Assembly: GCA_965204745.1 (NCBI GenBank)
Contig: OZ242010.1
Location: 4,224,001-4,288,000, forward strand
Direction: 5' to 3'
DNA length: 64,000 nucleotides
From: Candidatus Latescibacterota bacterium
GTDB taxonomy: Bacteria; Latescibacterota; UBA2968
Both the position numbers and the translations under genes were made by a program. Positions 5,664-64,000 of this stretch are shown here, piece by piece (within the stretch, counting starts at the first letter, position 1; each line of letters begins with the position of its first letter). The notes under the pieces are model-generated. The model was not told the origin of the DNA. It did no database searches and saw only the letters and a list, made by a program, of their open reading frames with translations.

Positions 5664-5734
5664 GGGGGCCTCCTGTGATGAGGGGGTTGTAAGGGATCTG
5701 GTGCGCGCTCGGGGTCGCGTCCCGACCATTGACG

Positions 5735-5916
5735 CCAAGTCTACCGGTCTTGTATATGCAGCCTCAAGGGGCTTAGATACTCTTCGGCATAGACCCGGCG
5801 GTCGGGGGGCCTATCTTACCTACAAGGTCATCGCCTTCAAGAGGGGCCGGCCTTCCCCGAGCCGGGCATCAAGATGGCTTATCTCGATACGAGGGCGCAA
5901 CTCCTAATTAACCCTT
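5735..5916 (-). ncRNA. predicted IS110 bridge RNA (ends approximate)
   Basis: target loop with guides at 5840-5848 and 5815-5821 around an AAGG/CCUU stem; donor loop with guides at 5775-5783 and 5749-5755 around an AGCC/GGCU stem, closed by GUCUA/UAGAC. Confidence 0.8.
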
Positions 5917-6003: not shown

Positions 6004-6200
6004 GCTCCTTCAAATCATAACATCTTGTAACAAATCGTAACAAATCGCACATGTTACGTGAATGCGAAAGAAAGTTGATTTGATAGACGCTTCACAGGGC
6101 GTGCGTCCACGCGCTTACAACCTCGTGTCCGTCTTACAGCACCTCCACGTCCGTTTAGCGACTCGGCAGGGCTTGCCGCGTCGTAGTGTTTCAAATTGAT
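6004..6200 (-). ncRNA. putative omega/reRNA scaffold of TnpB (5' end approximate)
   Basis: position at the element 3' end overlapping the tnpB tail, as established for TnpB elements; structure not computed. Confidence 0.45.
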
Positions 6201-7283: not shown

Positions 7284-7456
7284 TGACCTGTCCAATATAA
7301 AAATCCGCCGATGGTTGTATCCAAAGCAAGGCTTTGCCACCGGCGGAATCAAACAAATACAAAAATGGCCTTGCTTTTGGATACACACCTTAGACGACTA
7401 CAAACGACAAAAGATTCCACCTTTTTGTGCGATTTGTGATGATTTGTTACAAGATG

Positions 7457-33369: not shown

Positions 33370-34555
33370 GGCGTTGTTGCATAAATAGCAATTTCCTGCA
33401 AGTTGGGATAGCAAAAAGACAGGCTCCTTCGTAGATTGGGCATATAGATCACCAAACACCACTCACCCTTTCTCACCAGGAACCTGTCATGCCCAAGATA
33501 ACCGCTTCCCTGACCGCTGTCAAGTCCCCGCGTCGCCCGCGTCGCCCGCGCTGTGCGCCTGTCTATCGGGTCCGGAACTGGGCGGCCTACGAGGCCGGTC
33601 TCAAGCAGCGGGGCAGTCTGACGTTTTGGATTACGCCGCAAGCTCTTCGGGGGTGGTACCATCAAGGGCCAACGCAACGGGGGAGGCAAAACACCTTTTC
33701 AGATTTGGCTATTCAAACGGCGTTGATGGTGCGCTTGGTCTCTGCCTTGCCCCTGCGTCAAACCGAGGGGTTTCTCACGTCCATCCTGGCGTTGATGGGG
33801 GTGGCTTTGCGCGTGCCCGATCATACGACCCTCTGCCGGCGACAGGGCGATTTGAATGTGGATTTACCTGTCCAATCCCATCATGCGCCGATCCACTTAG
33901 TGGTGGATTCCACCGGCCTGAAAGTGTATGGCGAAGGCGAATGGAAGGTGCGTCAACACGGCTTTTGCAAGCACCGGACTTGGCGCAAATTGCACATCGG
34001 CGTCGATGAGGCCACCGGCGAGCTTGTCGCACAGACCCTGACTTCGGCAAGCGTTGATGACGCTTCGCAGGTCAACCCCTTGCTCGATCAAGTCCTGGCC
34101 CCTGTCCATACGATGGGTGCAGATGGCGGCTATGACAAACGCAAGGTCTTCAACACATGCGCCGCCCCCAAACAAGGAGCACCCATCCGACCTCTGATTC
34201 CCCCGCGCCATGACGCGAAAATTGAACAACACGGAAACAGGAAGGGCCCTCCCTTGGCCCGCGATGAAATCATCCGAGCCATCCGGCGTCAAGGCCGCCG
34301 ACAGTGGAAACGCACCCGTGGCTATCATCGTCGCTCGGTCGTTGAAACCCAACTATGCCGCTACAAACAACGCATTGGGCGGCAGTTGCGTGCGCGAAAT
34401 CAGGAGAACCAAGAAACGGAAGCGCGGTTGGGATGTGCGGTGCTCAATCGCATGATGAGGATCGCGAAACCCGTGTCCTATCCCAGAGAAAGAGGGGCTT
34501 AAATCTCGCGGGAAAGGGACGAACTTTGCCACGACAACATTTATGCAACAACGCC
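33370..34555 (+). mobile_element. IS5-family (IS903 group) insertion sequence
   Basis: perfect 17-bp TIRs GGCGTTGTTGCATAAAT / ATTTATGCAACAACGCC enclosing a transposase. Confidence 0.93.
33489..34502 (+). CDS. IS5-family (IS903 group) DDE transposase
   Basis: NWAAYEAGLKQRGSLTFW, PDHTTLCRR, VDSTGLKVYGEGEW, WRKLHIG, ADGGYD, GYHRRSVVET. Confidence 0.95.
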   Translation: MPKITASLTAVKSPRRPRRPRCAPVYRVRNWAAYEAGLKQRGSLTFWITPQALRGWYHQGPTQRGRQNTFSDLAIQTALMVRLVSALPLRQTEGFLTSILALMGVALRVPDHTTLCRRQGDLNVDLPVQSHHAPIHLVVDSTGLKVYGEGEWKVRQHGFCKHRTWRKLHIGVDEATGELVAQTLTSASVDDASQVNPLLDQVLAPVHTMGADGGYDKRKVFNTCAAPKQGAPIRPLIPPRHDAKIEQHGNRKGPPLARDEIIRAIRRQGRRQWKRTRGYHRRSVVETQLCRYKQRIGRQLRARNQENQETEARLGCAVLNRMMRIAKPVSYPRERGA

Positions 34556-39100: not shown

Positions 39101-42100
39101 TCAATCCGCGGCACTGTGGCGATAGGCGGTGTCGCGGGTTGTCGATTCGATCTCCGGCGTGCCAAACCACCGCCAGATCAGGCTGATCAACACCGCACGA
39201 TGACCAGTGTGAGGGCCGTGGCAAATGCGAGCCCAAAGATGACGGCCACGCCCATTGGCCCCCACCACTGGCTGCTGCGCCCCCCAATTTCCCACGAAAA
39301 GGTAAAAAAGTCAAAACTAATGCCGGTGGCAAGGGGCAACAACCCGAGAATGGTGGTCATGGCCGTGAGAATGACGGGGCGAAATCGGACGACGCCTGCG
39401 CGTATGATTGCGTCTCGCGCCGAAAGCCCGCGCTGGCGCAACTGCGCGGTATAGTCGATCAAAACAATCGCGTTGTTGACCACCACGCCCGCAAGGCTGA
39501 TCACGCCAATGCCCGTCATGAGAATCCCAAAAGGCGTTCGCGTGACGATCAGGCCAATCAGCACGCCGATCAAAGACAAGACGACGGACGTGAGAATGGC
39601 AAAGGGCAGGGTCAGGGAATTGAATTGCGTAATCAAAATCAGCGCGATGCCGGCCAAGGCCACGAGAAAGGCTTTGGACAGGAAGGCGATGGCTTTTTGC
39701 TGTTCTTCATTTTCACCCGCATAGCTGATTTGGTAGCCCGGTGGCAAGGGAAAATCGGACAGGGCAGCCTGTACGTCGCGCATCGCCGCATCCGAGGTGC
39801 GGTCTTGAACTTTGCCTTCGATGGCGATCACGCGCTTGAGGTCTTTGCGCCGAATGCTACCAAATCCCCCGCCTGTCTCGATGCGCGCAACCGCGCTGAT
39901 GGGCGTGATTTTGCCGTCTTTTTCGATGGTGATGCGCGCGAGGTCCGCAAGGGTATTGCGCTCGTCCGGCTCGAAGCGCACCCGGATGTCGTATTCGTCT
40001 TCGCCCAGCCGATATTCAGAGGCGTCTGTGCCGTAGATGGCCGAGCGCACCGTAGAGGCGATCAAGCGCGTATTGAGGCCCGTCAGCGCCGCGGCTTCGC
40101 GGTCGACGACGATGCGGATTTCGGGGCGCCCGCGGTCGTAATCGTCTTTGAGATCGACGATGCCGGGCACGTCGGCCACCAGGCGTTTGATGCGCGCGGC
40201 CAATTCGCCCAAAACCTCGAAGTTTTCGCCGGAGACCTCGACGCTGATGGGCGCGCCCACCGGAGGGCCGGCGCGTTCTTTGGTCAACTCGATTTCAGCG
40301 CCGGTCAGGTCTCGGAGTTTGCCGCGGATTTCCTCGATAGTCTCAAAAGAGGATTGCCGGCGCAGGCTTTCGTCGACGAAGTCGATGGAAATGCGACTGG
40401 CGTGGGAAACGCCTTCGCCGCCGGCAAAACCACCTCCACCCGCCACCCCCACGTTGGCGACGTAAGTTTCAACATCGGGCATATCGGCGAGAATGGATTC
40501 GATCTGGCGCGCCAACCCATCCGATGTTTCGAGATTTGTGCCCGACGGGGCGCGCACGTCAATATAGGCGGTATTGGGTTCGATCTCGGGGAAAAATTCG
40601 ATGCCTCGGCCCAAAAAGATGTACGCCACGACCACGAGCATGAGGGCGGTTGTCGCCCCCAACAGGGTTCGCACCGGGAAATGAAGTGCGGTTTCGAGGC
40701 CATGCCGATAGGCGTTGAGCACGCGCTGCTGCGCGGGTTTTTCGACCGGGGCGCGCACGGTCATAAAAGACGCGCAAAAGGTGGGGTTGATAACGAGGCC
40801 CACCAAAAGAGATGAAAACAGGGTGATGATCAAGGTGATGGGCAAATATTTCATAAACTCGCCCATGATTCCGGGCCAGACGATCATGGGGGCAAACGCG
40901 CACAAGGTCGTCAGCGTTGAGGTCACCACGGGCCAAGCGACTTCGCCCGTGCCTTCCAAGGCGCCCCGGAGATGGGATTGGCCTTCTTGCCGGTGGCGGT
41001 AGATATTTTCCACGATGACTATGGCATTGTCCACGAGCATGCCCAAGGCGAGGATCAGGCTAAACAAAACGATCATGTTGAGGGTCATGCCCATCAGTGA
41101 AATCGCGACAAAAGAGATGAGCATGGAAAGGGGAATGGCGATGCCGACAAAAAAGGCATTGCGAACCCCCAAAAAGAAAAAGAGCACCAAAATGACGAGG
41201 ATCAAGCCGGAGACGATATTGTTTTCGAGGTCTTTGACCATCATGCGAATGTCTTCGGATTGATCGCCCAAAATGGTGACCCGCGTGCCCGCGGGCAAGG
41301 TGGGGATCAAGTCGTCGAGCAGGGTTTTGATGTGATCGGCGATGGCGATCAAATTTTCGCCGCTGCGCTTGACGATTTCGAGGCTCACGCTGGGTTTCTG
41401 GTTGAGGCGGGCGAAAGTTGCGCGCTCCTTAAACCCATAGACGACCTCGGCCACATCGCGGATATAGACCGCGCGGCCCTGCCGCGCTTTGATGAGCAGG
41501 TCGCCGATTTGGGAAACGGATTCGAGTTCGCCGGGCACGCGCACGGCGTATTTGTACGCGCCCATAGCCACGCTGCCGCCGGGCAGGGTCAAATTTTCGC
41601 GCCGAATGGCGTCGATCACGTCTTGGATGGCGAGTTTGTACGCGCTGAGGCGGTCGGGGTCCACATCGACTTGGACTTCGCGTTCGAGCCCGCCTGCTAC
41701 GCGCACTTCGAGGATGCCGGGGATGGTCTCAATTTGGTCCGCGAGGTCTTCGGCGATTTTTTTCAGGCGAACGAGGCCGTAATCCCCCGACAATGCGACC
41801 AGCATCATCGGAATATTGGAAAAGTTGATTTCAAAAACAGCGGGATCGTCTGCGTCATCGGGGAGGTCTGGCTTGGCCAAATCGACCTTGTCTTTGACGC
41901 GCTGAAACGCGTCGTCGAGATCGACCTTGGGATGAAATTCGACCGTGATCGACGAGGCGCCCTCGACCGAACTCGAGCGGATCACCTTGACGTTTTCAAT
42001 GCCTTGAAGCTCTTTTTCCAAGGGGCGAGTGACGAGGTTTTCGACATCCTGCGGCGAGGCGCCGATGTACGGCGTGGTGACGATGATAACCGGAATGGCG

Positions 42101-42219
42101 ATATCGGGCGACGCCTCGCGGGGCAGGGACAAATACGCCGAAGTGCCCGCGATGATCAAGATGCCGACAAAAACGTACACGGTCATGCGGTGTTTGAGCG
42201 CGTATGCGGTGATGGTCAT
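39101..42219 (-). CDS. RND efflux permease (AcrB/CusA superfamily), 1-nt frameshift near 39195
   Basis: GMLVDNAIVIVENI, VNNAIVLID, RFRPVILT; last TM continues in another frame (VLISLIWRWF...). Confidence 0.9.
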
Positions 42220-43265
42220 TTGCTCTGTTCCCGGTATTTGACGATCACGTGGTCGCCATCGATGAGGTCTCGCCCCCCTTTGACGACGAGTTGATCCCCG
42301 AAGGACAAGCCCCGTTGGACGACCACGCGGTCGGCTTCTGCCGCGCCTAGCTCGAGGGGTCGTAGCCGTGCGGTATTGCCGTCAACGACAAAGGCCACGG
42401 GCCCGGTTTCGCGTTCGAGAACGGCTTCTCGGGGGATGACGATGACCTCTCGGTAGATGCGCCGCACGGCTTTGAGCGTGCCGATCATGCCGGGGCGGAT
42501 GCGGCCCGTTGGGTTGGGCAGGTGGACTTCGATGGGAAAAACCCGTTGCGCCGGTTCTGCGGCGGGGCCAACCTGCGCGATAGCACCTGCAAATGTCTCG
42601 CGTGGAAGCGCGTCCAAACCAAGGGTGACGCGGCTGCCTTTGCCAAAATCGACGATTTCGCTCTCGGCCACCCAGGCGGCAACGCGCAGGCTATCGGTTT
42701 GCACCAGCCGAAATGCGGCCCCGCCCTGCGCGATTCGTTGCCCCTGCGCGATGTACCGCTTGGCTATCTGCCCGGAAAAAGGCGCGCGAACACGCCCATA
42801 AGCGATGCGATGCGCGAGGGTTTGCGCCGCTGATTTGGCGCGGTGAAAATCGTATTCTGCGGCAAAATGCGCCCGTTCGGAAATCGACCCCTCCGAGAAG
42901 AGTTTTAGACTGCGGTCGTAATTGTAGGTCTGAAATTTGAGATTGGCCTCGGCTTCGATAAACGCGGCTTCCAAAAGCTCTAAATCGAGTTGTGCGAGCA
43001 CATCGCCGCGTGTGACCCCATCCCCCACCTCTTTGTGAATGGCGATGACCACGCCCGATTCGAGGACGCTGAGGGTCACGTCGCGCCAGGCATTTACCGT
43101 AGCCGAGAGGCGGCTGTATTGGACGAGCGAATCGGGTTTGATCGCCAAGGTCGAGACATTGGTGGCGCGCTCGACGATCCCATTCCTTTGCGCGGCAGAG
43201 TCCTCGCCACAACCCACATGGATCAATAGCAACAGGCAGGGGATCAAAAACTTGTGCGACGTCAT
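42216..43265 (-). CDS. RND periplasmic adaptor (MFP)
   Basis: lipoprotein-like signal, VGDGVTRGDVLA, VRAPFSG, IRPGM. Confidence 0.9.
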   Translation of the reverse strand: MTSHKFLIPCLLLLIHVGCGEDSAAQRNGIVERATNVSTLAIKPDSLVQYSRLSATVNAWRDVTLSVLESGVVIAIHKEVGDGVTRGDVLAQLDLELLEAAFIEAEANLKFQTYNYDRSLKLFSEGSISERAHFAAEYDFHRAKSAAQTLAHRIAYGRVRAPFSGQIAKRYIAQGQRIAQGGAAFRLVQTDSLRVAAWVAESEIVDFGKGSRVTLGLDALPRETFAGAIAQVGPAAEPAQRVFPIEVHLPNPTGRIRPGMIGTLKAVRRIYREVIVIPREAVLERETGPVAFVVDGNTARLRPLELGAAEADRVVVQRGLSFGDQLVVKGGRDLIDGDHVIVKYREQSK

Positions 43266-44665
43266 GGGTTATCCTCTGAAACGTTCGGCTCGCCCAAAAT
43301 GCCCGCGCTGCGTTCCAACTGCACGAGGGCGACCGCGAGATCGCGTCGTGCCCGGGCGAGTTCGGCTTCGGCGCGCTGTAAGGTGAGTTGTCCGTCGATG
43401 ACTTCGAGTTGGGTGCCCACGCCGTTTTCATATCGGGATTCGGCGATTTTCATGCCTTGCCGGGCGAGGTCAACGGCCTGTTGCTGCGCCCGTTTTCTGG
43501 CGAGAAGTTCCAGGACATTGCGCCGCGCTCGCACGACGGTGAACCGCACGTCGCGCTCGGTCTGCTTTCGCGCCAACTCGGCGCGCCGCGTGTCGGCACG
43601 GGCTTGGGCCACCCGCGCACGGGTGCGAAAGCCGTCGAAGATGGGGATTTTGAGGGTGACGCCCGAAAACCAACTCTGGCGAAAATCGCCCTTGGCAAAC
43701 TCAAATTCGTTCTTTTGCGCTTGCCACTGTCCATTGACGATCAAATCCAGGGTCGGGCGCGATTCGGATCGGGCAACGGCCTCCGTGCGTTGGCGCATTT
43801 CGACCTCGAGGCGGCGTTGCCGCGCCAGGGGACGCATGCGCGTGGCGAGATCGATCAGGTCTGCCTCGGTGCCGTGGGATAAAAGATCGGGTTTGTCGCG
43901 AAAAGTCCCGTGCGGCGCGATGGGTTCGCCATGATCGAGGCCGATCTGATTTTTGAACGCAAGTGCCGCCAAGACACGCGCATTTTCCGTGCGGATGGAG
44001 TCCGTCCGCAATTCGGCCACCTGCACCTGTGCGCGCAACAAATCGTAATTTGACACGCGCCCGGCCTCGCGCAACTTTTCCACGCGCCCGAAATTTGCCC
44101 GCGCCCGCGCCACGGCCAATTCGCTGACGCGCACGAGTTCCCAAGCCAGCAACAGATCGTAAAAAGCCGTTTCGACCCGCGTGTGTACGTCCTGTTGCAC
44201 AGCGCGCACCTGCTCCGTTGAAAAGGCCGCAACCAGACGCGCAATCCGCAGGCCGGCGAACGATTTCCCCCCGCCGAAAAGGGGTTGTCGGATGCCGATA
44301 GTACCGCTGAGGTTGTTGTGCGCGCCCACGGTAAATTGTTGTTGGCCCGCTGGTGTGTCAAAGAAAAAGGTGGGCAACAAATAGTTGCGCGTGTACTGCA
44401 AGGTAAGATCGAATTGGGGGAGAAAATCGGCCATGCCTTCGCGGATCTGGAGGCGCGAGTTGTGCAGGTCTTCACGCGCGATTTGCAGATCTTCATTGTG
44501 CGATAGCGCGTGCTGCAAACTCTCTTCGAGCGTCAGGGGGCGGGAATGGGCTTTGGGAAGCCCGAAAGCGAGAATCAGAAGCCCGATGCGATACAGGCAT
44601 CGGCAAACAAAAATGTATGTCATCGGCATTTGGAGAGGTTGGGATTTACGGATGTCGGCATCCAT
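43262..44665 (-). CDS. TolC-family outer membrane channel (start uncertain)
   Basis: LTLEESLQHAL, AFYDLLLA, LKIPIFDG, RYENGVGTQLEV. Confidence 0.9.
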   Translation of the reverse strand: MDADIRKSQPLQMPMTYIFVCRCLYRIGLLILAFGLPKAHSRPLTLEESLQHALSHNEDLQIAREDLHNSRLQIREGMADFLPQFDLTLQYTRNYLLPTFFFDTPAGQQQFTVGAHNNLSGTIGIRQPLFGGGKSFAGLRIARLVAAFSTEQVRAVQQDVHTRVETAFYDLLLAWELVRVSELAVARARANFGRVEKLREAGRVSNYDLLRAQVQVAELRTDSIRTENARVLAALAFKNQIGLDHGEPIAPHGTFRDKPDLLSHGTEADLIDLATRMRPLARQRRLEVEMRQRTEAVARSESRPTLDLIVNGQWQAQKNEFEFAKGDFRQSWFSGVTLKIPIFDGFRTRARVAQARADTRRAELARKQTERDVRFTVVRARRNVLELLARKRAQQQAVDLARQGMKIAESRYENGVGTQLEVIDGQLTLQRAEAELARARRDLAVALVQLERSAGILGEPNVSEDNP

Positions 44666-53294: not shown

Positions 53295-54697
53295 TTAATT
53301 GGCCCTCAAGCGTTTCCACTTAGATCCGTATCCGTGGCCTATAGGAGTAGCCAAGCCCAGTATCCTTAGAGTAGCCAAATCCTCGCGTATCTGACGTTTG
53401 CTAGCTGACAATTCAAGCCGTGCGTGTATCTCGCGCAACGCCAATCCTTTGCGAACCTCGTTCAGCAATGCAAGGATGACCTGTTGCCGCTCAGTCAGGT
53501 CGTGGCCTACTCGCTGGGGCGGCACGTAGCGGCTGGGGCGAAATCGCACGGTTACGCAACCGGATACATCCTCTATCTCAGGTTGCGGTAGTCCGGCAGA
53601 TGTCACTAACTCTGCCATCTTAATCGTCCCACTCCCCCATTGCTCAATAATGCCGCGCCGGTAAAACGCATTGGCAATCAGCGGGTTCCAAGGCTGCGAC
53701 TCATGCGCCATAAAAAGTAACGCAGGCGTTAGCCCAAAGTGCAGGGGACCGGTTGAGGTAATTTCCAAGCGGTCGTCGTAGATGCCCACAGACACTGAAC
53801 CGCCGCCGCTGGTGTAATCCCGGTGACACAGGGCGTTGGCCAAGGCTTCTCGCAACGCCAGTGGTGGGTATAGCGGTTCATCTACCCGCACAAAAGAGTC
53901 TGGCACAACGCGCCCGGCAACGGGCAGGTTCTGGATCAAGAAATGCTCTGCATGGGAGAGAAGCGCGAAGGCATTGCCGCGAAATTGGCGATTGTCGAGA
54001 AATTCAGTGCGACCAACGCCGCGAAACCGAGCGACTCGCAGTAAGCACTGCGGCATCTCGGCTTCTAGCCGGGCGTTGTTGCCAAACAGCACGAGCGCGG
54101 CACGCAAAAGCACGCCATCTTTGACGAGACCCAGGCCGCGCAACAATTCGTTGGGTTCTCGACTAATCGGATTAGCCGTTCTCCCGCGGCGGATGATTCA
54201 TCAACCGTGCGCTGGAGTTCAGCCAGGTCCAAGTCATCAACTGACCAGCCGACAGCAGGCTGGTTTTCCCATCGCTGTTCGCCGTGAACGCGTTCCAGAA
54301 ACATCTGGTCTTCGGCGTCTCGGGGCATACGCCAATTCGTGTTCCCAACGCGCCGATAGGCATTGCCTCGGTATCGGTAGGGAATCATATCCCCGCGATT
54401 CACTCTAACCACCAGTACTTCGCGTCCACCTGCAAGGGGAACCCGGTCAATGCTTGGAAAGGCCGGAGGCTCAATCCGCTGGAACTCCGCGCTTACATCC
54501 TCAATCGTGCGCTCACCCACTTGTTGTCCCGTCACCACGCCTTCCGGTGTGACGCCAATGAAAATGATGCCGCCGCGGTTGTTGAGCATGGCGCAAACCG
54601 TCTTGGCCGCCTCGCGTCGTTCGCCAGTGGTCTTTTTCAACTCCAATGTTTCGGACTCGCCGGCTGCAATTAGTCTTGTAATATCATCGAGCATCAT
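53295..54697 (-). pseudogene. Schlafen/AlbA_2 + HATPase-like + HTH protein, frameshifted near 54197
   Basis: GESETLELK...CAMLNNRGGIIFIG; ALREALANALCHRDY, NPLIANAF, IEQWGSG, C-terminal wHTH; adding one A joins the two ORFs. Confidence 0.8.
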
Positions 54698-54716
54698 CGT
54701 CAATTCTCTCCCGATT

Positions 54717-56117
54717 TCACCGCATTTTGACGCTGGGAATCGCTGTGCCTTGGGCGGCGGCGATAGAGAGGCCGGCGGCTTTGGCAAGGGTCGCGGATAT
54801 GCTTTCTAGGCTTTGCCCGTCAAAGGATTGACCGCCGATGATTTGCGGGCTGACGATGAGTGCGCGGGCCGAGGGTTGGTCGAACAGCGCGAATGTCGCG
54901 CCGTTGCCATAACGCGCCATCGCGCTCATGGCATCGTGAAATTTGGAAATGGCGTCCGCAGACACATCGCTGGCTTTGATTTCCACAAACAGAATGTCGG
55001 GAAGTGCCGCATGCATGGCGGTTCGCGTGACCTGATCGATAAACGCGCTGCCGAGTTTGCGGCTTTCTTCATTGTCCATCAGCACGCCCGAGACCAACTT
55101 GCCGAATGCCTCGTCCTTGATGACCTTTTTGAGTTTGAGGGCTTCTGGCGTCAGTTTGGGTTTGACCATGCGGTCGATATACCGCTGTGACTTGCCCTGC
55201 TCGATGGCAGTGCCGAGTTCTTCTTCGATGATGGTTGCAATTTTTTGTAGGCTTGGGGCATTGACCGCAAAGGGGCTGTACTTGTCCCCATAGCCCTTGG
55301 CTTTGCTGGCCGTGGGCGGAATTTTCTTTTCCCCGGACTGGTAAAACGCGAGCGTGCGCGTGTGCGACCTGTCCTCGATGGCTTTGTTGTGGTATTCAAA
55401 CAGCGAAGGCGCGGCGAGGTTCTTGCCCTTGAGCGCGTTGGGCGATGCCGTTTGCACCGTCGCCATCCAATCGCGGGGATTGTCCGGATATGCCACTTGG
55501 TCGAACAACGCGCCCCTGTAAGTCAAATAGGCCGGGATATGCGACTCGGAGTCCGCGCCGGTAATCGCGACGATGACCAACCCCTTGGACAAACTCTGAT
55601 CCGCCAACACAAACGATTGAACCGCGCGCTCGATCAGCGCGTATTGCGCCGGTGTCAAATCCTCGACCGTGAGCGTGATGCGACTGCCCCTGCCGCGTCC
55701 GCCCTGCCCGCGTCGCCCCTGCCCGCCACCTTGGAGTCCCTGAAACTCGCGGATGACCGCGCCAAAAACCGCGTTAAATTCCGGGCGGGACGTATTGGGG
55801 ATTTTGCGAAAAAAGAGTTCGAGTTGTTGCTGCCGTACCGGAAACAGGTCGTCCCACTTTCTCGCCTGATCCAAAATGTACACCCGAATGGGCGCGGGCA
55901 TCTGATTGAGAATCTGCCCATGGGCTTCGAGGAGCTTTTGGGCATCCCACGGGAAATCCGCGTATTGCCCCCGTCTGCCGGCGCGCAAATCCCCACCACC
56001 GCCACCACCGCGTCCACCGCCGCCACGGCCGCCGCGCTGGGCGAAAACATCTGCCATATCCAAGGCGCACAATGTTGCGCCCATCAACACAATTGAAATC
56101 CATCTCGAAACTCGCAT
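54717..56117 (-). CDS. hypothetical secreted protein with RGG/Gly-rich tracts
   Basis: signal peptide followed by QRGGRGGGGRGG; host-like codon use. Confidence 0.65.
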   Translation of the reverse strand: MRVSRWISIVLMGATLCALDMADVFAQRGGRGGGGRGGGGGGDLRAGRRGQYADFPWDAQKLLEAHGQILNQMPAPIRVYILDQARKWDDLFPVRQQQLELFFRKIPNTSRPEFNAVFGAVIREFQGLQGGGQGRRGQGGRGRGSRITLTVEDLTPAQYALIERAVQSFVLADQSLSKGLVIVAITGADSESHIPAYLTYRGALFDQVAYPDNPRDWMATVQTASPNALKGKNLAAPSLFEYHNKAIEDRSHTRTLAFYQSGEKKIPPTASKAKGYGDKYSPFAVNAPSLQKIATIIEEELGTAIEQGKSQRYIDRMVKPKLTPEALKLKKVIKDEAFGKLVSGVLMDNEESRKLGSAFIDQVTRTAMHAALPDILFVEIKASDVSADAISKFHDAMSAMARYGNGATFALFDQPSARALIVSPQIIGGQSFDGQSLESISATLAKAAGLSIAAAQGTAIPSVKMR

Positions 56118-56171: not shown

Positions 56172-56957
56172 TCAAAGATTTTGATCGAGCCAGTCCAACA
56201 CATCTGCCCACGCGCTGCCCTGTGCGAGCAAATCGAGGCCGTGCCCCGTGCCCTGATAGCCGATCACAGCGGTGACGCCTTGGGTCAAGCCCGACATGGT
56301 TTGGGACGAGGTATAGGCATAGCCATCGCCAAAAGCCGCCAAAAAGAGAATGTTGCGCGGCGCGAACCCGGGTATGTTCGTCCCGATGAGCACTTCGCGC
56401 GCCTGATTCTCGCGGAAGGAGGGCGACACCGAGACCGTCGCTTTGATATCCGACACCAAGCCCGCGCTCACAAACGCGATGTCCGCGCCGATGTCCGTGC
56501 CCACGACGCCGATGCGGTTGGGGTCTGCCTCCGGGCGGGTTTTGAGAAATGCAACCGCAGCCTCGACATCTAACGGCATCTGGTTGAAGTCCTCGACGGA
56601 AAAGTTTTCGATAGTGAACGCTTGGCCGTTGCGAAAGATGCTGTTGCCATGCCCGCGCAGGTCAAACGCAAGGGCCACGTAGCCCCGCTCCACGACGAGT
56701 TCCGGCACAAAGCCCGCCCATTGACCGTGATTTTCATTAAACGGGTGGATCAAGATCACCGCAGGGCGCGGCCCGGTCAGGTGCGAAGCGGAAAACAGCG
56801 TGCCAAACAACGAGAATCCATCCGCGGTTTGAAACTGCACGGGTTGCAACCGCACAGAACGCACCACGGCGTCAGGCGACATTGTGGGCATCGTCATCTC
56901 CGTACCGCCACATCCCCCCAAAACTGCAACGAGCACAATCCATAACCCGAGGCGCAT
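56172..56957 (-). CDS. alpha/beta-hydrolase-fold lipoprotein
   Basis: LGGC lipobox, VILIH, FDLRGHG, GVVGTDIG, GHG. Confidence 0.8.
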   Translation of the reverse strand: MRLGLWIVLVAVLGGCGGTEMTMPTMSPDAVVRSVRLQPVQFQTADGFSLFGTLFSASHLTGPRPAVILIHPFNENHGQWAGFVPELVVERGYVALAFDLRGHGNSIFRNGQAFTIENFSVEDFNQMPLDVEAAVAFLKTRPEADPNRIGVVGTDIGADIAFVSAGLVSDIKATVSVSPSFRENQAREVLIGTNIPGFAPRNILFLAAFGDGYAYTSSQTMSGLTQGVTAVIGYQGTGHGLDLLAQGSAWADVLDWLDQNL

Positions 56958-57068
56958 GACCAATGTCCTTTTGCTTTCGACTGCGTTTGTGTGTATGTTT
57001 CCCTCGATATATGGCAACATAATGCAATCTAACCGAAATAGCAAGCGGGGACGCCTGCGGAGGAGATT

Positions 57069-57245
57069 ATGCCGGAACTCACGCGCTACGATTTGATTTT
57101 GATGGTCATTACGGGCGGCATTTTTGTGGTGGGTCTGTGGTCCACCATCTTCGCCTTTCTCTATGGATTCTTGAAGCGGTTGGACAAGATCATCTCGCTC
57201 TTGGAACGAGAGGCGAGAGAAGCGACCACAGATGAACGCGAATGA
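57069..57245 (+). CDS. 58-aa single-TM protein absent from the ORF track
   Basis: AGGAG at 57061-57065; MPELTRYDLILMVITGGIFVVGLWSTIFAFLYGFLKRLDKIISLLE... Confidence 0.6.
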   Translation: MPELTRYDLILMVITGGIFVVGLWSTIFAFLYGFLKRLDKIISLLEREAREATTDERE

Positions 57246-57325
57246 CCGGACGGTTTAATCCGCGGAAAAAAAACCTTGCCATCGCGGGTCGGGCGAGCAC
57301 GGGAGGGGGCACTCACTTCTCGCAG

Positions 57326-58090
57326 TTACAGCAGGCGTTCGCGGTCGAGCATGCGGCGGAGGGCGAGGAAGATGCACAAGGCCCCCAACGCGACAATGCC
57401 CACGCGATTGAGGATGACGCGGTTCGTCCACAGGTTGGGATCGAGATTGGAGGGGGGTTCAAAGGGTTTGAGAAAGAGGTCGTAGGCCGAGTTGGTCAAC
57501 GTATTGCCACCTATTTCTACTTCCGATTCCGGCGAGGTCAAAAGCAAAATCGCGATCAAAATGCCCACGGCGATCATGCCCGCTGCATTGCTGCTGCGGC
57601 ACAGGACCGAAAAGAGGAATGTGAGGCCCACCATGAAAAACGCGGGGAACCAGGCATTGAGCCCGCCCCAAATGAAGGGGAACTCGGCAAAGAAAAAATA
57701 GGCGATGGCACTCATCGCCATCAGGGTGGCGAACAACACGGCGCAGATCGTCACGATCCGCACGGACCAGGTGGCGTAGTGGCTGATCGCGGTGCTGAAC
57801 AGAATTTCGAGGGTGTTCTTATCGCGCTCGCCCGCGACCATGTCCATCGTCAAATAGATCGCGAGCACCGTGCCCGGCACTTCGACCAAGACATTGAGGG
57901 CTTGCTCCACGGAAAATCCCTCGCCCGGGTACCAGAGCGCGAACGCGTACAAAATCGCGTAGTAGCTCAAAACGCCACCGCACATAAAAATCACTTTGCG
58001 GTGAAGCGCGATTTGCATGCTCAAGGCGTGCAATTTGCCGACCGAGAAAAGCAACTCACGCCAGGTCAGGTTGTTTGTGTCGGTTGCCAT
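57326..58090 (-). CDS. ABC-2-type permease
   Basis: about 6 TM; MVAGERDKNTLEILFS motif; overlaps the end of the RND-ABC fusion gene. Confidence 0.75.
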   Translation of the reverse strand: MATDTNNLTWRELLFSVGKLHALSMQIALHRKVIFMCGGVLSYYAILYAFALWYPGEGFSVEQALNVLVEVPGTVLAIYLTMDMVAGERDKNTLEILFSTAISHYATWSVRIVTICAVLFATLMAMSAIAYFFFAEFPFIWGGLNAWFPAFFMVGLTFLFSVLCRSSNAAGMIAVGILIAILLLTSPESEVEIGGNTLTNSAYDLFLKPFEPPSNLDPNLWTNRVILNRVGIVALGALCIFLALRRMLDRERLL

Positions 58091-61000
58091 GTCGCAAGAG
58101 GTAGAGGTACGCGTCTTCGAGATTGGGTTCGACCGCCCGCGCTTCGGGAAGCGGAGATGCGGCGAGAAAGCGCGCGCGAATCCCGCCCGGCACGCGCACA
58201 TGGGCAATCAGGTCCAAGTCGCGCTCTAGGGCGTCAAACCGCGATTCGCTCAACAGGGCTTCCCACACCCTGTCGCGGGCGAGTTCGCGCATCGCTAGCG
58301 GCGTGCCCGCGTAGAGGACTTTGCCTCGGTCGAGCACGGCCAAGCGGTTGCAACTGCCGGAAATATCTTCCACGATGTGCGTGGAAAAAATGATGATCTT
58401 CTCTTGGCTAAATCGCGCCAGCAAGTTTCTGAAGCGGATGCGTTCCAGTGGATCCAGGCCCGCTGTCGGCTCGTCCACCACGATCACCTGCGGCAGGTGC
58501 AACAGGGTTTGGGCGATGCCTACGCGCTGTTTCATGCCGCCGGAGAACGCGCCGATAGGGTCGTCTCGCCTGTCCCACAGGTTCACCTGTTCCAAGCACG
58601 CTTGGACGCGCTTGCGCCGTGCTACGGTGTCTTTGAAGCCCTGCAACAGGGCGCGGTATTCCAGATAATCGCCCGCGGACATGTGCGAGTACAGGCCGAA
58701 GTGCTGCGGCAAGTACCCGATCACGCCTCGCATGTTTTGGTGGTTGAGCGGGGTCTTGCCATTGACGAGCACGGAGCCGTAACTCGCGGACAACACCCGG
58801 CACGCGATCCGCATCAAGGTGGTCTTGCCCGCGCCATTGGGGCCCAAAAGCCCGAACATCCCGCGCGGAATATCCAAGCTCACGCCGCCGAGGGCGCAAA
58901 ACTGCGGCCGGGGAACCCCGATGATGGGCACGGCGGCTGCGCCGCGATACGCGATGCCCTTGAGAAAGCCCAATCGCCCCGGCATATTTTCCGGGTTGAC
59001 GCGCCCAGACGCGACTCGGTTTGCCAAGAACGCGGTCAGGTGGTAGAGGAGATAGACCGCCGCGCAGGCAATGGTCAATGACAGCAGGTTCAACCGCCAG
59101 TGGATAAAAGCCACAAAGGACAGCGGCAGGATTGCGCGGGCGAGTTTCAACAGAAATCGGTTTTTGAGCTGAACCCCGCACGTCGTTGCGAAACCGCGCG
59201 CGAGGTGATGGATGAGGCCGCACAGGCCGAGGGCGGTCAGAAAGATCCACATCCCCGCTTCAAAATAAGTCTCCAAATAGACGAGCAGGGCGAGCAAGGG
59301 CAATTTCCACCACAGGCTGTCCCGCTGATCGACGATCAACCGCGCGCCGCGTTGTTCGCGCCGCTTAAACCGATCCCATTCGCGCCTGAACTGCCCGGGC
59401 GCGCCGTAAATTTTCGTGAGGTTGCGGATTTGGAGATATTCCACGTCGCCAATTTGATCGCGGGCCGCGATGCGCGCGCGGTGAACGCGCTGTACCAGCC
59501 ACGCGCCGGTCATGCAGATGATCCACGCGGGCAGGGCCAAGAGGCAGGTCCAGAACAAACTCTGGTAATAATCGTCGACGAAATAGGTCGCCCCCGCGGC
59601 GACTGCGCTGCCCAAAGCAACGCCGACCCAGCCGATGTCTGCCAACCACGCCTTGACTTGGTCGATGCCCATATAGACCACGGGGATGAAAATCAGGGTG
59701 GAGACCATCGAAACCCCCATGCCGCCGAGCACGGTAATGGCGAACGGGGGCCAAATTTCGTAATCCCCGCCGAACTTGAGGGCCAGGGGCAACACGCCCA
59801 AAATGGTGGTGGCCGAGGTCATCAAGATGGGGCGCACGCGGGAGCGGGACGCGGCCAGCACAGCGCGTTCTCGCCTGAACCCGTGCCGGAAGCGCGAGGT
59901 GCTTATCGCGTCTATGAGCACGATGCCATTGTTGACGGCGATGCCGAGCAACACGATGAAGCCGAGGATTGCCATCGGCGCTTCTTGAGACGCGAGGCCC
60001 GTGCCGGACAAGATCAGCGCCCAGCAAGAGCCGATGATCGCCGTGGGCAAGGTGCAAAGGATGATGAGGGGCGCGGAGAGCGATTCGAACAGCGAGGCGA
60101 GGATCATGAAAATCAACAGCGCGGCAATGCCGATCATCCAGTAGTAGATCGTCTCTTCTTCGGCCTCGACGATTTCGATGGCGTAGCCGGTGGGCAACAC
60201 CATTTCGGCGACCACGTCTTGCACGTACGCCCGCGCCGCGTCCAACAGGGGTTGAGACGCCAAAATTTCGTCTGCAAACCGGTAGGACACGATCACGCGC
60301 CGAGATTGGTCGGTCCGCAAAATCATGCTGCGACCTTGGTCCCGACGCACATGCGAGACTTCGGACAGGGGCAAGTGCGTGCCGCCCGCGCCGAGGATCG
60401 GGGTTTGGCGCAAGCCCTCGATGCCGTCGCCCTCTTCTTCCGGATCTTCCACATTGCGAATTTCAATGGGGATTTCCGCGCCGTCCGGGGCGAGAAAGGA
60501 CACAGTGGCGCGCGCGCCGCGCGGGTTGGCGTCGCCCACGGCATTGAGCACGGTTCGCACTTGCAGGCGGCGGTCGAACATGATGGCCTCGTCCGGCAAG
60601 ACGTGGACTTCGGGCGCGCCGCGTTCCGCGTCGGGCTGGATGCTGTTGGGATCGATTTCCTCCACTTCTTCGAGGCGGAAGGCCAGGTCCTCGGCGATCA
60701 TCTGCAGCACGGTGAAATCGTACCCGCGAATCACAGCGGTTTCCGCGGGCGCGCCGCCTTCCAAATTGAACCCGCCGGAGGAGCGCGCGCGACTGCTGCC
60801 GCGAATGCCGCCGCCACCCCCGCCGCGGCCCCCGCCTCGGCCCGTGCGGGCAATCGGCTCGTAGCTCACTATGGCGTTTTCCGCGCCGCCAAACGCGTCG
60901 GTGTCCTCGAGCGTTTCCTTGATGAGATCGACCGAGATGCCGCCGCGGTCCGCCAGGGGCAAGAGCTCGACATTGATGGTGGCCTGCGTTTCCCGGATGC

Positions 61001-62765
61001 TGGTGACAAAGCGTTCGATGCCCTCGGCTTCGCGCACCGCGCTTTCCACCTCGCCGACCGCTGCGTCCAATGCCTCTAAGGTCGTGCCTTCGGGCATGCC
61101 GATGTAAATGGCGAACCGGTTTTGCTCTCGGCGGACGTCGCGTTGCAGCATGAAGATCAACGAGATGATGAGGGTGATGATGAGCGCGCCGGCGATGCCG
61201 AGGGAAACGCCGATGCGGTGGCGCAAGCCGGTTTTGAGGCAGATCGTGTACATCTCGATGAGCCTGCCGGTTTCGGTTGGCGGCCGAGATGCCAGGGACA
61301 GGGTTTTGGACGCAAGGGCCGGCACCAAGGTCAGGGCGACCAAGAGCGAGGCGAGCAGGGGGAAGGTCATGGACAAGGCGAGTTCGCGCAGCAGGTCTTG
61401 ATAATCGCTTTGGATGAAGACCACGGGCAAAAAGACCGTGACGGTTGTCGCGGTGGCCGCGAGCACGGCGCGGGCGACTTCGTCCGTGCCCAAGCGCGCG
61501 GCTTCGTTCGGGGATTTGCCCTGTTCGTAGTGCTTGAAGATGTTCTCCATGACCACGATGCCATTGTCGGTCAACATGCCCACGGCCAGGGCCAAGCCGC
61601 ACAGGGAGAGCACGTTCAGGCTGAGGTCCCACAGGTACATCAAGTTGAACGTGAGCAACAAGGAACAAGGGATGGCGAGGATGAGCACTGCGACAAAGCG
61701 CAGGTTTCGCAAGAACAAGAACAAAACAAAAAGCCCGAGCACGCCCCCCGCGCCCGCGGCTTGTTTGAGGGTGCTGAGGGCTCCGTCCATGATCTCGGCT
61801 TGGCTTTGCGCGATAGCGAGTTGGATGTTTTCCGGGGCGAGGTCCGCATTGACGCGGGCAATCGTGGTTGCGAGTTCTTCTGCGACTGCGATCAGGTTGG
61901 CCTCGTCGTCTTTTTGAATGCGGATGCCCACCGCGGGCTTGCCGTTGATGCGCTGGATGTCGGCGCGTTCCTGAAGGCCGTAGCGAATTTGCGCGATGTC
62001 GCCGAGGTGCAAGGGCAGTTCCGGTTTGATGACGAGTTGGCGGATTTGTACGAGGTCCGTGAATTGCCCGCGGATGCTGACCGCGTACACGCGTTCCCCG
62101 TCGTGAACCTCGCCGAGGTATTGCCTGCGCGTGTTGAACGCCTCGATGCGGTTGCGGACGTCTGACATGGAGAGTTGGTGCGCTTGCAACAGGGCGGGAT
62201 CCGCGATGATTTCGATGGCGGCGCGTTGTCCGCCGAGCACTTGTGCGTTGACCACGCCGTCGACCGCTTCGAGTTCCGGGCGGATTTTCTCTTCGGCAAA
62301 TTCGCGCAGCCAATTTATGTCGCCATCTGCCAAGACGTGAATTTGCATCACAGCGGCCGAGAGGTCGGACGAGTCAAAGCGCTGTACGTCGAGGCGCGTG
62401 CGCTCGGGCAACATCGGTTGGAGGCGCGTCAGCCGGCTTTCGAGTTGTAGCAACGCAAATTTCATGTCCGTATCCGGCGCGTACGCCACGCGCACGCCCC
62501 CGTTGTTTTCGCGGGAAAAGGATTCGAACGCCTCGATGCCCTCGAGTTTGCCGATTTCCTCTTCGATGGGCATGACCAATTCGCGCTCGACCTGTTCGGG
62601 CGAATAGCCCTGTTGCCTGGCCGTGACATAGACTTGGGGCGACACGTATTCCGGAAAAATCTGCACCGGCAATCGGTAGAGGGAGATCGCGCCCATGATG
62701 CCCAATGCCAAAAAAAACATGGCCGTGGTCACGGGCCTTCGCACGGCAAATCCCGCAAGGGTCAT
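58056..62765 (-). CDS. RND permease fused to a C-terminal ABC ATPase domain
   Basis: RND motifs GMLTDNGIVVMENI, RVRPILMT; then GPNGAGKT, YLPQ, FSGGMKQ, VVDEP, FSTH in one 1569-aa frame. Confidence 0.9.
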   Translation of the reverse strand: MTLAGFAVRRPVTTAMFFLALGIMGAISLYRLPVQIFPEYVSPQVYVTARQQGYSPEQVERELVMPIEEEIGKLEGIEAFESFSRENNGGVRVAYAPDTDMKFALLQLESRLTRLQPMLPERTRLDVQRFDSSDLSAAVMQIHVLADGDINWLREFAEEKIRPELEAVDGVVNAQVLGGQRAAIEIIADPALLQAHQLSMSDVRNRIEAFNTRRQYLGEVHDGERVYAVSIRGQFTDLVQIRQLVIKPELPLHLGDIAQIRYGLQERADIQRINGKPAVGIRIQKDDEANLIAVAEELATTIARVNADLAPENIQLAIAQSQAEIMDGALSTLKQAAGAGGVLGLFVLFLFLRNLRFVAVLILAIPCSLLLTFNLMYLWDLSLNVLSLCGLALAVGMLTDNGIVVMENIFKHYEQGKSPNEAARLGTDEVARAVLAATATTVTVFLPVVFIQSDYQDLLRELALSMTFPLLASLLVALTLVPALASKTLSLASRPPTETGRLIEMYTICLKTGLRHRIGVSLGIAGALIITLIISLIFMLQRDVRREQNRFAIYIGMPEGTTLEALDAAVGEVESAVREAEGIERFVTSIRETQATINVELLPLADRGGISVDLIKETLEDTDAFGGAENAIVSYEPIARTGRGGGRGGGGGGIRGSSRARSSGGFNLEGGAPAETAVIRGYDFTVLQMIAEDLAFRLEEVEEIDPNSIQPDAERGAPEVHVLPDEAIMFDRRLQVRTVLNAVGDANPRGARATVSFLAPDGAEIPIEIRNVEDPEEEGDGIEGLRQTPILGAGGTHLPLSEVSHVRRDQGRSMILRTDQSRRVIVSYRFADEILASQPLLDAARAYVQDVVAEMVLPTGYAIEIVEAEEETIYYWMIGIAALLIFMILASLFESLSAPLIILCTLPTAIIGSCWALILSGTGLASQEAPMAILGFIVLLGIAVNNGIVLIDAISTSRFRHGFRRERAVLAASRSRVRPILMTSATTILGVLPLALKFGGDYEIWPPFAITVLGGMGVSMVSTLIFIPVVYMGIDQVKAWLADIGWVGVALGSAVAAGATYFVDDYYQSLFWTCLLALPAWIICMTGAWLVQRVHRARIAARDQIGDVEYLQIRNLTKIYGAPGQFRREWDRFKRREQRGARLIVDQRDSLWWKLPLLALLVYLETYFEAGMWIFLTALGLCGLIHHLARGFATTCGVQLKNRFLLKLARAILPLSFVAFIHWRLNLLSLTIACAAVYLLYHLTAFLANRVASGRVNPENMPGRLGFLKGIAYRGAAAVPIIGVPRPQFCALGGVSLDIPRGMFGLLGPNGAGKTTLMRIACRVLSASYGSVLVNGKTPLNHQNMRGVIGYLPQHFGLYSHMSAGDYLEYRALLQGFKDTVARRKRVQACLEQVNLWDRRDDPIGAFSGGMKQRVGIAQTLLHLPQVIVVDEPTAGLDPLERIRFRNLLARFSQEKIIIFSTHIVEDISGSCNRLAVLDRGKVLYAGTPLAMRELARDRVWEALLSESRFDALERDLDLIAHVRVPGGIRARFLAASPLPEARAVEPNLEDAYLYLLRHGNRHKQPDLA

Positions 62766-64000
62766 GGCGATTTCCCCCTGAGCCGGTCGATCATTTCGTA
62801 CATGGTGGGAATGATGAGCAGGGTCATCAAGGTGGAGGTGACCAAGCCGCCGATGACGGCGATGGCCATGGGCGCGCGCAATTTCGCGCCTTCGCCAAAG
62901 CCGAGGGCCATCGGCAACAGGGCGAGGATGGTGGTCGCGCTCGTCATCACGATGGGCCGAAGGCGATCCTGCCCGCCCTGCAACACGGCTTCCCGCAGGC
63001 CTAGGCCCTCGCGCCGGAGTTGGTTGATGCGATCCACGAGCACGATGGCGTCATTGACCGCGATGCCGCCGAGCATGATGATGCCGATGTAGGCCATCAC
63101 GCTGAGGGGTTCGCCCAAAAAATAGAAGGCGAAGACCACGCCCACGCCGGCCAAGGGCACGGAAAACATGACCGTGAACGGGTGGAGCACGGATTCAAAC
63201 AGGGAGGCCATGACCATGTACACGAGCGCGATAGAGAGGATCAGCGCGAATTTGAGGCTCGCAAAGGATTCCCTGCGCTCGCGCTCTTCCCCGCCGATGG
63301 CGATGCGATAGCCAGAGGGGATGGCCATGGTTTGGATCGCTGCGCGGATTTCTCCGATAGCCTCGCTCAACACGCGGCCCTCGGTCAAGTAGCCGGTGAC
63401 GCGGCCCACGCGCCGTTGGTTTTCCCGTAAAATTTCGCGCGGGCCTTCGATGATATTGAGGTCCGCGATATCGCCCAAGGTCAAGACCGCGCCCTCGGCG
63501 CCATCGATTCGGATGGTTTGCAGGGCGTTGAGGTCGATGTCGCGGTATTTGACGCGAATGTCGCGCGCGCGCTGGTCCTTGGACAATTCGCCTGCGACTT
63601 CGCCGGACAACTGCCGTTCCAAGGTGCGGCTGATGGTTTGCGTGGTCAGGCCAAAGGCGGACGCGACTTCGTCTCGGATAGCGAGATCGACTTCGGGTTG
63701 CCCGCCCTGAAAGCTGGTTCGCACATTGTACACCGCGGGCAGGGATTCCAGGCGCGCTTGGAGTTCTTTTGTGATGCGCGCCAAAATGTCGAGGTTTTCC
63801 CCAGACACCTCCACTTGAATGGGCGCGTCTCGTCCGGCCATGACGCCTTCGAGCGCGGTTTCGTGCAATTTGTACTTGACTTCGATATCGGGCAACGCGC
63901 TCAGTACGGGATCGAGATCGCGCACCAGTTCGCTCACATTGCGCGAGCGGTCCGAATGCAGCGCCACAGAGAGGGTTGCGCGGTTGGGGCCAGAGGGATC
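62762..64000 (-). CDS. RND permease, C-terminal part (gene starts beyond the window)
   Basis: LVYMVMASLFES, VNDAIVLVD, RLRPIVMT, APMAIAVIGGL; ATGA overlap with the next gene. Confidence 0.9.
   Translation of the reverse strand, partial: DPSGPNRATLSVALHSDRSRNVSELVRDLDPVLSALPDIEVKYKLHETALEGVMAGRDAPIQVEVSGENLDILARITKELQARLESLPAVYNVRTSFQGGQPEVDLAIRDEVASAFGLTTQTISRTLERQLSGEVAGELSKDQRARDIRVKYRDIDLNALQTIRIDGAEGAVLTLGDIADLNIIEGPREILRENQRRVGRVTGYLTEGRVLSEAIGEIRAAIQTMAIPSGYRIAIGGEERERRESFASLKFALILSIALVYMVMASLFESVLHPFTVMFSVPLAGVGVVFAFYFLGEPLSVMAYIGIIMLGGIAVNDAIVLVDRINQLRREGLGLREAVLQGGQDRLRPIVMTSATTILALLPMALGFGEGAKLRAPMAIAVIGGLVTSTLMTLLIIPTMYEMIDRLRGKSP

Follow-up and report, generated by a model that had tools for sequence, protein, structure and literature searches.

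A conserved fusion of an RND permease with an ABC-2-class ATPase at a putative two-engine export locus in Latescibacterota

Resistance-nodulation-division (RND) pumps and ATP-binding cassette (ABC) exporters are the two main export engines of the Gram-negative envelope, and they draw on different energy sources. To our knowledge, the two have been described so far as separate machines. Here we report a locus of a Candidatus Latescibacterota bacterium (assembly GCA_965204745.1, contig OZ242010.1) in which a single gene encodes both an RND permease and an ABC ATPase. The gene lies in a stretch of 64,000 nucleotides (nt), positions 4,224,001 to 4,288,000 of the contig, which is called the window throughout and whose own numbering is used below.

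The closest precedent for the RND side is MdtB2C and that for the ABC side is NosFY. A review describes HAE-1 pumps as homotrimers and only rarely as heterotrimers such as MdtBC (PMC8277102). As in MdtABC-TolC (MdtB2C) of Escherichia coli, two paralogous RND genes are adjacent in one operon, and among solved structures MdtB (9lyq_B) comes closest in sequence to both transmembrane helices (TM) 2-6 and TM8-12 of the fused RND. Unlike in MdtBC, one paralog has 529 extra residues, which comprise six membrane helices and an ABC ATPase, and where MdtB has Asp-Asp (DD) in TM4 and Lys in TM10, the fused RND has Asp-Asn (DN) and Asn-Asn (NN). The likeness to NosDFY concerns the ATPase, whose model finds the NosF chains 7osf_B and 7o0y_B among its best fold matches at 30% identity, and a six-helix permease resembling NosY; several homologs of this permease are labelled 'multi-copper enzyme maturation permease', the label of the NosY type. 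In contrast to NosDFY, the ATPase is here joined to an RND and, as modelled, split by a four-helix insert; neither a NosD-like nor a NosL-like gene was seen in the window.

MacAB-TolC is similar to the fusion loci of distant relatives (below) in that an ATPase-driven exporter is encoded with a membrane-fusion protein (MFP) and an outer-membrane factor (OMF). In MacB, a type VII exporter, the ATPase is fused to its own permease of four helices with a large periplasmic domain; in contrast, the present system has a separate six-helix ABC-2 permease of 254 amino acids (aa), an RND-fused ATPase and an RND pair, and is not of the MacB type. YbhGFSR of E. coli is an ABC-2 exporter encoded with a HlyD-type adaptor, and at one related fusion locus (L004, below) an ABC-2-class ATPase and permease likewise adjoin a HlyD-family gene (in the order MFP, ATPase, ABC-2 permease), but YbhGFSR lacks both an RND component and a fusion. 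MacAB-TolC and exporters of the YbhGFSR type indicate that an ATP-driven exporter can work together with an MFP and an OMF. In two-step efflux, pumps of a single component carry substrate over the inner membrane into the periplasm, from which AcrAB-TolC removes it; one pump serves the inner membrane and an RND the outer membrane, as proposed here, but those pumps are separate, unlinked proteins, whereas here there is one polypeptide. None of the compared systems joins RND and ABC engines in one chain. A literature search, with subscription journals and transporter databases such as TCDB outside its range, found no description of an RND-ABC fusion; the first-pass annotation of this DNA, made from its letters alone, had likewise known of no functional description. 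The passages of review PMC8277102 that were consulted make no mention of such a fusion.

Past TM12, the second of the two RND genes encodes a hairpin of two helices, followed by a complete ABC-2-class ATPase. Its parts are as follows.

58056..62765, minus strand: fused RND::ABC gene, a single open frame of 1,569 codons plus stop (Pfam, NCBIfam, homologs)
59646..62765, minus strand: RND permease module, residues 1-1040, 12 membrane helices (Pfam, NCBIfam, hydropathy, alignments with MdtB, CmeB and MexB)
60753..60842, minus strand: glycine-rich loop, residues 642-671, within the second periplasmic domain of the RND module
59481..59645, minus strand: linker hairpin of two extra membrane helices, TM13-14, residues 1041-1095 (hydropathy; AlphaFold2 helices 5-27 and 30-62)
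59403..59438, minus strand: predicted displaced first beta strand and A-loop of the ATPase, YLQIRNLTKIYG, residues 1110-1121 (model strand 70-80, invariant residues, N-terminal profile)
58911..59393, minus strand: insert in the ATPase, residues 1125-1285, a predicted helix, TM15-18 (about 59010-59309) and a connecting helix
58266..58910, minus strand: ATPase core, residues 1286-1500, with Walker A, Q-loop, signature, Walker B, D-loop and H-loop (Pfam, Foldseek)
58059..58265, minus strand: C-terminal domain of the ATPase, residues 1501-1569 (alignment; model strands 460-494, helix 509-522)

Translation of 58056..62765 meets no internal stop and gives a product of 1,569 aa, in which Pfam finds ACR_tran in two stretches from residue 4 (E 1.5e-177) and ABC_tran at residues 1294-1435 (E 2.3e-26). 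NCBIfam assigns the first part to RND_permease_2 at 495 bits, under the 1,250-bit cutoff of that family. With a full-length ACR_tran domain, 12 membrane helices and two large periplasmic loops, the RND module has the make-up of an HAE-1-like permease. In addition to the RND helices, a hydropathy scan finds a pair of helices at about 1041-1091 and a group of four at about 1155-1248. These six additional helices (TM13-18) fit no recognised family, and a look-alike search of the ESM Atlas with residues 1040-1290 gave no usable match. A continuous frame that joins an RND permease, extra membrane segments and an ABC ATPase had been read from the sequence at first pass, and translation, Pfam and hydropathy bear this out. 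The glycine-rich loop of the RND module consists of a run of G and R followed by GGFNLEGG, and a G-rich stretch at this place is kept in the family consensus.

The fusion is widely conserved. When residues 1060-1569 were searched against proteins of 862-2,746 aa, all 120 homologs listed (40-95% identity) hold both PF00873 and PF00005; 108 of them are at least 1,400 aa long and the remaining 12 measure 881-1,374 aa. They are thus not always split, which the first-pass annotation had named as the mark of an assembly or frameshift artefact. The sources are Gemmatimonadota, Latescibacterota, Acidobacteriota, KSB1 and Bacteroidota, the last including isolates of Mangrovibacterium, Gaoshiqia, Sunxiuqinia and Labilibacter, and the many independent assemblies include complete-size contigs of 4.7-8.1 Mb as well as cultured isolates. 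The junction itself is conserved, with W1040, L1116, K1118, Y1120, G1124, E1129 and W1130 invariant in 30/30 sequences. Database entries call these proteins 'efflux RND transporter permease subunit' or 'ATP-binding cassette domain-containing protein', and present annotation in this way conceals the fusion. One fused homolog of 1,579 aa (P0041) bears a precomputed PF00403 heavy-metal-associated domain, a possible hint at the cargo in that lineage.

A search among shorter proteins returned chiefly fragments from short contigs. Irrespective of length, residues 1041-1569 were also compared with 1.84 billion cluster representatives (50% identity), of which the best 150 were tabulated. Among these 150, the insert is covered by 39, of which 24 are at least 1,500 aa long and the other 15, of 451-1,355 aa, mostly have RND sequence upstream; five representatives (P0139, P0265, P0267, P0297 and P0340) are ambiguous as to stand-alone status. 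Judged without genomic context, neither the shorter-protein matches nor the best 150 representatives contain a clear class of stand-alone ATPases with the insert. Nine further representatives of the 150, of 1,389-1,458 aa, align only from the ATPase core on (P0287, P0289, P0298, P0302, P0304, P0318, P0333, P0338 and P0383), and all nine have the TM4-type motif of RND permeases. A fusion free of the insert is also found at L004:10001-14314, where a protein of 1,437 aa lacks TM13-18 and the ATPase follows a short linker. By these alignments the fusion exists in two forms, one that has the membrane insert and one that lacks it. A divergent fused set (P0263, P0274, P0286, P0307, P0325, P0331, P0356 and P0373) has NP, not NN, in TM10 and gives no match to the TM4 pattern.

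The ATPase retains Walker A (G1308-K1314/T1316), the Q-loop (Q1354), the signature (S1408-G-G-M..Q1413), Walker B (V1429-V-D-E1432), the D-loop (G1436-L-D-P) and the H-loop (H1463), and every one of these catalytic motifs is invariant in 30/30 aligned homologs. The intact motifs claimed at first pass are thus confirmed across the family, and by them the ATPase would be catalytically competent. In the first strand and A-loop, Y1120, which falls at the position of the A-loop aromatic residue of ABC ATPases, is likewise invariant in the 30 sequences together with L1116, K1118 and G1124. The A-loop is not found at the usual distance of about 30 residues before Walker A: the strand lies at 1110-1121 and Walker A begins at 1308, about 197 residues further on, with four membrane helices between.

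An AlphaFold2 model of residues 1041-1569, built from a 33-row alignment (mean predicted local distance difference test score, pLDDT, 83.7; predicted template modelling score, pTM, 0.68), places in succession TM13-14, a strand (model 70-80, residues 1110-1120), a helix, TM15-18, a connecting helix and the ATPase. The ATPase is predicted to be normal and to end in a beta-rich C-terminal domain. According to this model, the ATPase fold would be broken between the first strand with its A-loop and the second strand by the four membrane helices. A profile of the first ~20 residues of 38 ordinary ABC-2 ATPases of 275-320 aa points to the same place, since in 108 of 109 fused proteins its best match precedes Walker A by 190-289 residues. 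The window protein (P0001) scores 7.0 bits at residues 1111-1121 and the median over fused proteins is 2.8 bits, whereas reversed-sequence controls gave any match in only 36/109, the highest at -0.5 bits. As the scores themselves are low, it is the constant position that would carry the case for a displaced strand; a 36-residue piece around it had no NCBIfam match at E up to 10. The separation of the first ATPase strand from Walker A by a membrane insert, proposed at first pass, thus finds support in both model and profile.

A Foldseek comparison of the ATPase model with the PDB ranks the TM_1403 ATPase (4yer_A, E 1.5e-21) and the two NosF chains highest. Against NCBIfam it stays under the cutoffs of GldA (174.4 bits vs 402.6) and DrrA (157 bits vs 312.45). 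As judged from these comparisons, the ATPase belongs to the ABC-2 class (DrrA / GldA / NosF-like) and lies outside the named GldA and DrrA families. Its C-terminal domain (residues 1501-1569) is common, by alignment, to free paralogous ATPases encoded in relatives.

The fused gene overlaps a gene on each side, as the first-pass annotation had stated.

62762..64000, minus strand: partner RND permease gene, 3' part, last 412 codons, with the 5' end beyond the window (Pfam, alignment of TM7-12)
57326..58090, minus strand: predicted ABC-2 (NosY-like) permease gene, 254 codons plus stop, six predicted membrane helices (Pfam, alignment)

Upstream, the stop codon of the partner RND and the ATG of the fused gene share an ATGA at 62762-62765, a 4-nt overlap. 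The partner matches ACR_tran at profile positions 609-1020 of 1021 (E 9.1e-96) and is 35% identical to the fused RND across TM7-12. Two paralogous RND permease genes stand side by side here, and the overlap indicates that they are translationally coupled; such a pair recurs in six distant loci. Downstream, the permease most likely starts at the ATG at 58090 (254 aa), 35 nt inside the fused gene, and not at TTG 58207 as in the raw list of open reading frames (ORFs).

The permease has six hydropathy peaks and no large loop. Its family is small (112 matches at 47-99% identity); several members bear the multi-copper label in JGI naming, and several homolog clusters carry PF12679 or PF12698. Over its full length it aligns, at 20-24% identity, with the L004 ABC-2 permease and with the product of the gene directly after the fusion in each of five Bacteroidota loci, and the motif '..D..(L/I)EIL' is common to the window permease and its relatives in the six loci. 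The L004 homolog exceeds the Pfam cutoff (30.2 vs 27.2). In addition, 16 permease homologs are on contigs of exactly the same size as contigs of the fused homologs listed (4699647, 10781, 38542, 14202, 150044, 80034, 8082295, 19508, 57166, 9073, 5136897, 55862, 20538, 9478, 6449 and 9739), equal sizes being taken as one and the same contig. As eight of these 16 contigs measure only 6.4-20.5 kb, this implies close linkage of permease and fusion in the window's own clade. The co-occurrence of the permease, on which the first-pass reading had depended, is thus seen in both sets.

A structure prediction of residues 1041-1569 in complex with the permease scored 0.56 (runs 0.55, 0.56 and 0.59), against 0.00 for the best of three controls, with contact agreement between runs of at least 76% and a partner pLDDT of at least 72. 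In calibration, 58 of 80 solved complexes and 2 of 110 mismatched pairs passed; passing scores of 0.60 or under account for only 7 of the 80 solved complexes and for both passing mismatches. The pass may mirror mere likeness to solved ATPase-permease pairs such as NosFY.

A wider operon is seen in distant relatives. A genome scan by generic ABC patterns found the fusion in only six of 80 loci, none of them of the window's own clade: L001, L002 (Labilibacter sediminis), L003, L007 and L008 at 33-35% identity to the fused protein, and L004 at 29%. The gene order in all five Bacteroidota loci is free ABC ATPase, a protein of 1,111-1,171 aa, OEP, HlyD, RND, RND::ABC and small permease, except that in L003 the position of the free ATPase falls at the locus edge and the gene was not seen. 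In L004 the order is MFP, free ATPase, ABC-2 permease, RND, a 922-aa protein, RND::ABC and OMF. OEP and HlyD genes are present in all six loci. The MFP and OMF genes that the first-pass annotation had proposed to look for upstream are accordingly found in these relatives, while the window itself stops within the partner RND gene. The genes for the large proteins of the Bacteroidota loci lie beside the free ATPase.

L001:893-4228: large protein gene
L002:838-4203: large protein gene
L003:121-3582: large protein gene
L007:673-4188: large protein gene
L008:982-4317: large protein gene

All five large proteins end in Golvesin_C (Pfam), and two begin with ABC2_membrane_2, at E 3.2e-10 in L008 and 3.4e-5 in L001; the L001 protein also has a weak Peptidase_M1 match. 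The 922-aa protein of L004 has a weak ABC-permease match only (NCBIfam), and the ~1,000-aa proteins of L002 and L004 show no significant similarity to each other (best E 0.088). Free and fused ATPases are paralogs at 38-45% identity, with the same C-terminal domain and all motifs in both. Each kind of part is thus paired or apparently paired in the relatives, which have two RNDs, two ATPases and two permease-like proteins, one small and one large. Because each kind comes paired, these loci suggest a mixed RND trimer together with a heterodimeric ABC-2 exporter. Given the free paralogous ATPase and the large permease-like protein, the ABC part may be a heterodimer.

We consider it about an even bet (roughly 0.5) that the locus encodes a tripartite RND pump, probably heteromeric, that is covalently tethered to a complete ABC-2 exporter, with a hand-off of substrate between the two that we infer. 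A heteromeric RND and such a hand-off had also been suggested at first pass. The operon would then specify an envelope exporter with two engines, and the window would hold the 3' end of that operon. The two coupled paralogous RNDs would probably form a mixed trimer of the MdtBC kind and work with an MFP and an OMF, whose genes, as seen in relatives, would lie past the window end. The four inserted membrane helices would anchor the ATPase at the membrane, and the next gene would provide a six-helix, NosY-like permease for it. A free paralogous ATPase and a protein of ~1,000 aa, permease-like in most relatives, would complete the apparently heterodimeric ABC-2 exporter. The ABC-2 half, driven by ATP, may move the substrate out of the cytoplasm or the inner leaflet; the RND half, still proton-driven, may pick it up at the outer leaflet or in the periplasm and expel it through the outer-membrane duct. 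Being covalently tethered, both machines would stay side by side at a fixed stoichiometry.

Several points weigh against this proposal. The MFP, the OMF, the free ATPase and the large permease are not visible here, as the window ends 1.2 kb into the partner RND, and they are taken from loci whose fused proteins are just 29-35% identical. The equivalents of AcrB D408 and K940 are gone, so that proton coupling of the RND is taken by analogy. The permease falls just below the Pfam cutoffs (ABC2_membrane_2, 27.0 vs 27.2; ABC2_membrane_3, 26.8 vs 31.6), and the complex prediction of the ATPase part with the permease is a weak pass only. Lastly, there are possible true split forms on large contigs, namely P0134 (616 aa), P0135 (639), P0142 (439) and P0217 (548).

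The fusion could instead serve co-assembly only, securing equal expression, membrane targeting or co-localisation of the two machines with no direct transfer of substrate. All the parts come from families that work as separate machines, and the fusion is kept in two forms, with and without the insert, which suggests that the geometry of the link is not critical. Against this, the fusion is held down to 29-35% identity in several phyla and within three tightly coupled genes, which argues for selection on the physical link itself, and we regard co-assembly as the sole function as doubtful.

A second alternative concerns the cargo and not the mechanism: the substrate may be an envelope component, such as a lipid, glycolipid, lipoprotein or polymer, and not drugs or toxins. 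The ATPase class is that of NosF, GldA, DrrA and LptB-like exporters, the large protein of the relatives has an extracytoplasmic region that bears Golvesin_C and a weak Peptidase_M1 match, and a PMT_2 glycosyltransferase is encoded near the L002 locus. No linked biosynthetic genes are found in the window, however, where the permease is followed, after ~280 nt, by an alpha/beta hydrolase gene and an unassigned ORF, and gene neighbours vary from locus to locus. An envelope substrate thus seems unlikely on present evidence.

In a third alternative, the RND itself would be driven or gated by ATP. The fused ATPase would dimerise, either with another copy of itself or with its free paralog, and in doing so push or gate the RND transmembrane domain through TM12-14 and the inserted helices; the ATPase would replace or control the proton relay, and TM13-18 with the small permease would be a mechanical transmission link and not a substrate path. 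One fused and two plain protomers per trimer, the MdtB2C ratio, would fit one fused and one free ATPase per machine. The ATPase follows straight after TM12, with no intervening membrane helices in the L004-type variant, and the six extra helices are of no recognised family. The relay residues also seem to favour it at first sight. In the fused RND they are D400-N401 in TM4, N945-N946 in TM10 and R978 in TM11; compared with the MdtB, CmeB and MexB chains, D400-N401 replaces D-D, N945 replaces K, and R978 is the TM11 Arg. The relay of the AcrB/MexB type consists of an Asp pair in TM4, a Lys in TM10 and an Arg in TM11, and of these residues only D400 and R978 are kept. N401 and N945, the equivalents of AcrB D408 and K940, are invariant in 30/30 sequences, as are D400 (AcrB D407) and R978 (AcrB R971). 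Over 108 fused proteins, the TM4 DN is found by pattern in 106, with P0048, DN by eye, as the 107th, and the TM10 NN in 98, with ND in one. The nine TM10 pattern misses comprise six with NNGI or VNNGI, two with a truncated tail (IFLID and NGIFLID), and P0078, which has neither owing to a length shift.

The same motifs occur in RNDs that are not fused. The unfused partner RNDs have DN in TM4 in six of six cases, and the window holds an ordinary tripartite efflux operon (39187-44665, minus strand) that has no ABC gene.

43262-44665, minus strand: OEP gene of the ordinary efflux operon (Pfam)
42216-43265, minus strand: HlyD gene of the ordinary efflux operon (Pfam)
39187-42219, minus strand: ACR_tran permease gene of the ordinary efflux operon, 1,010 aa (Pfam)

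The permease of this operon shows GMLVDNAIVIVEN and GVVVNNAIVLIDY, the same TM4 DN and TM10 NN motifs. Two unrelated plain RND loci keep the usual residues where the pattern matched, with Lys in TM10 in L025 and L059 and DD in TM4 in both L059 genes. By these comparisons the DN/NN substitution is a trait of the subfamily and not a mark of the fusion. The loss of the D408 and K940 equivalents was considered as a sign of ATP drive and rejected, because an ABC-less RND operon of the same window, as well as the unfused partners, shares the motifs. Moreover, D400 and R978 are still invariant, and the ATPase has a cognate permease of its own, to which the free ATPase and the ~1,000-aa protein of relatives would be added to make a full ABC-2 exporter. 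We hold it to be quite improbable that the RND cycle is coupled to ATP hydrolysis by the fused ATPase.

An artefact, in which two separate genes were joined by an assembly chimera, a frameshift or a lost stop codon, has next to no probability despite a few short RND-less homologs on large contigs, and is ruled out because all 120 homologs listed hold both domains, in independent assemblies, and the junction residues are invariant.

A tethered pump and exporter, if this is what the locus encodes, would be of wider interest. As the fusion is kept across several phyla, it would mean that, for at least one substrate class, both engines work as one unit. It offers a natural and genetically tractable case for the long-debated question of how a substrate that crosses the inner membrane reaches an RND pump, and it permits a direct test of whether an RND cycle can couple to ATP. 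The cultured, non-pathogenic marine Bacteroidota that carry it (Labilibacter, Mangrovibacterium, Gaoshiqia and Sunxiuqinia) make such experiments feasible.

A scan of 56900-57450 for terminators and promoters found one terminator-like site against 0.5 expected. Two genes follow the permease in this direction.

56172-57044: alpha/beta hydrolase gene, downstream of the permease
54717-56117, minus strand: 466-aa ORF with no Pfam or NCBIfam match, downstream of the hydrolase gene

Beyond them, two ORFs overlap at 53295-54787 on the minus strand, one with AlbA_2 (Schlafen-type; 54065-54787) and the other with HATPase_c_4 (53295-54146). These domains are usually found within one protein, and the pair may be one gene broken by a frameshift. 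The window also contains three transposase-type genes, of the IS110 family (4656-5738), of the IS605 OrfB/TnpB type with a Cas12f1-like TNB domain (6054-7388), and with DDE_Tnp_1 (33489-34502).

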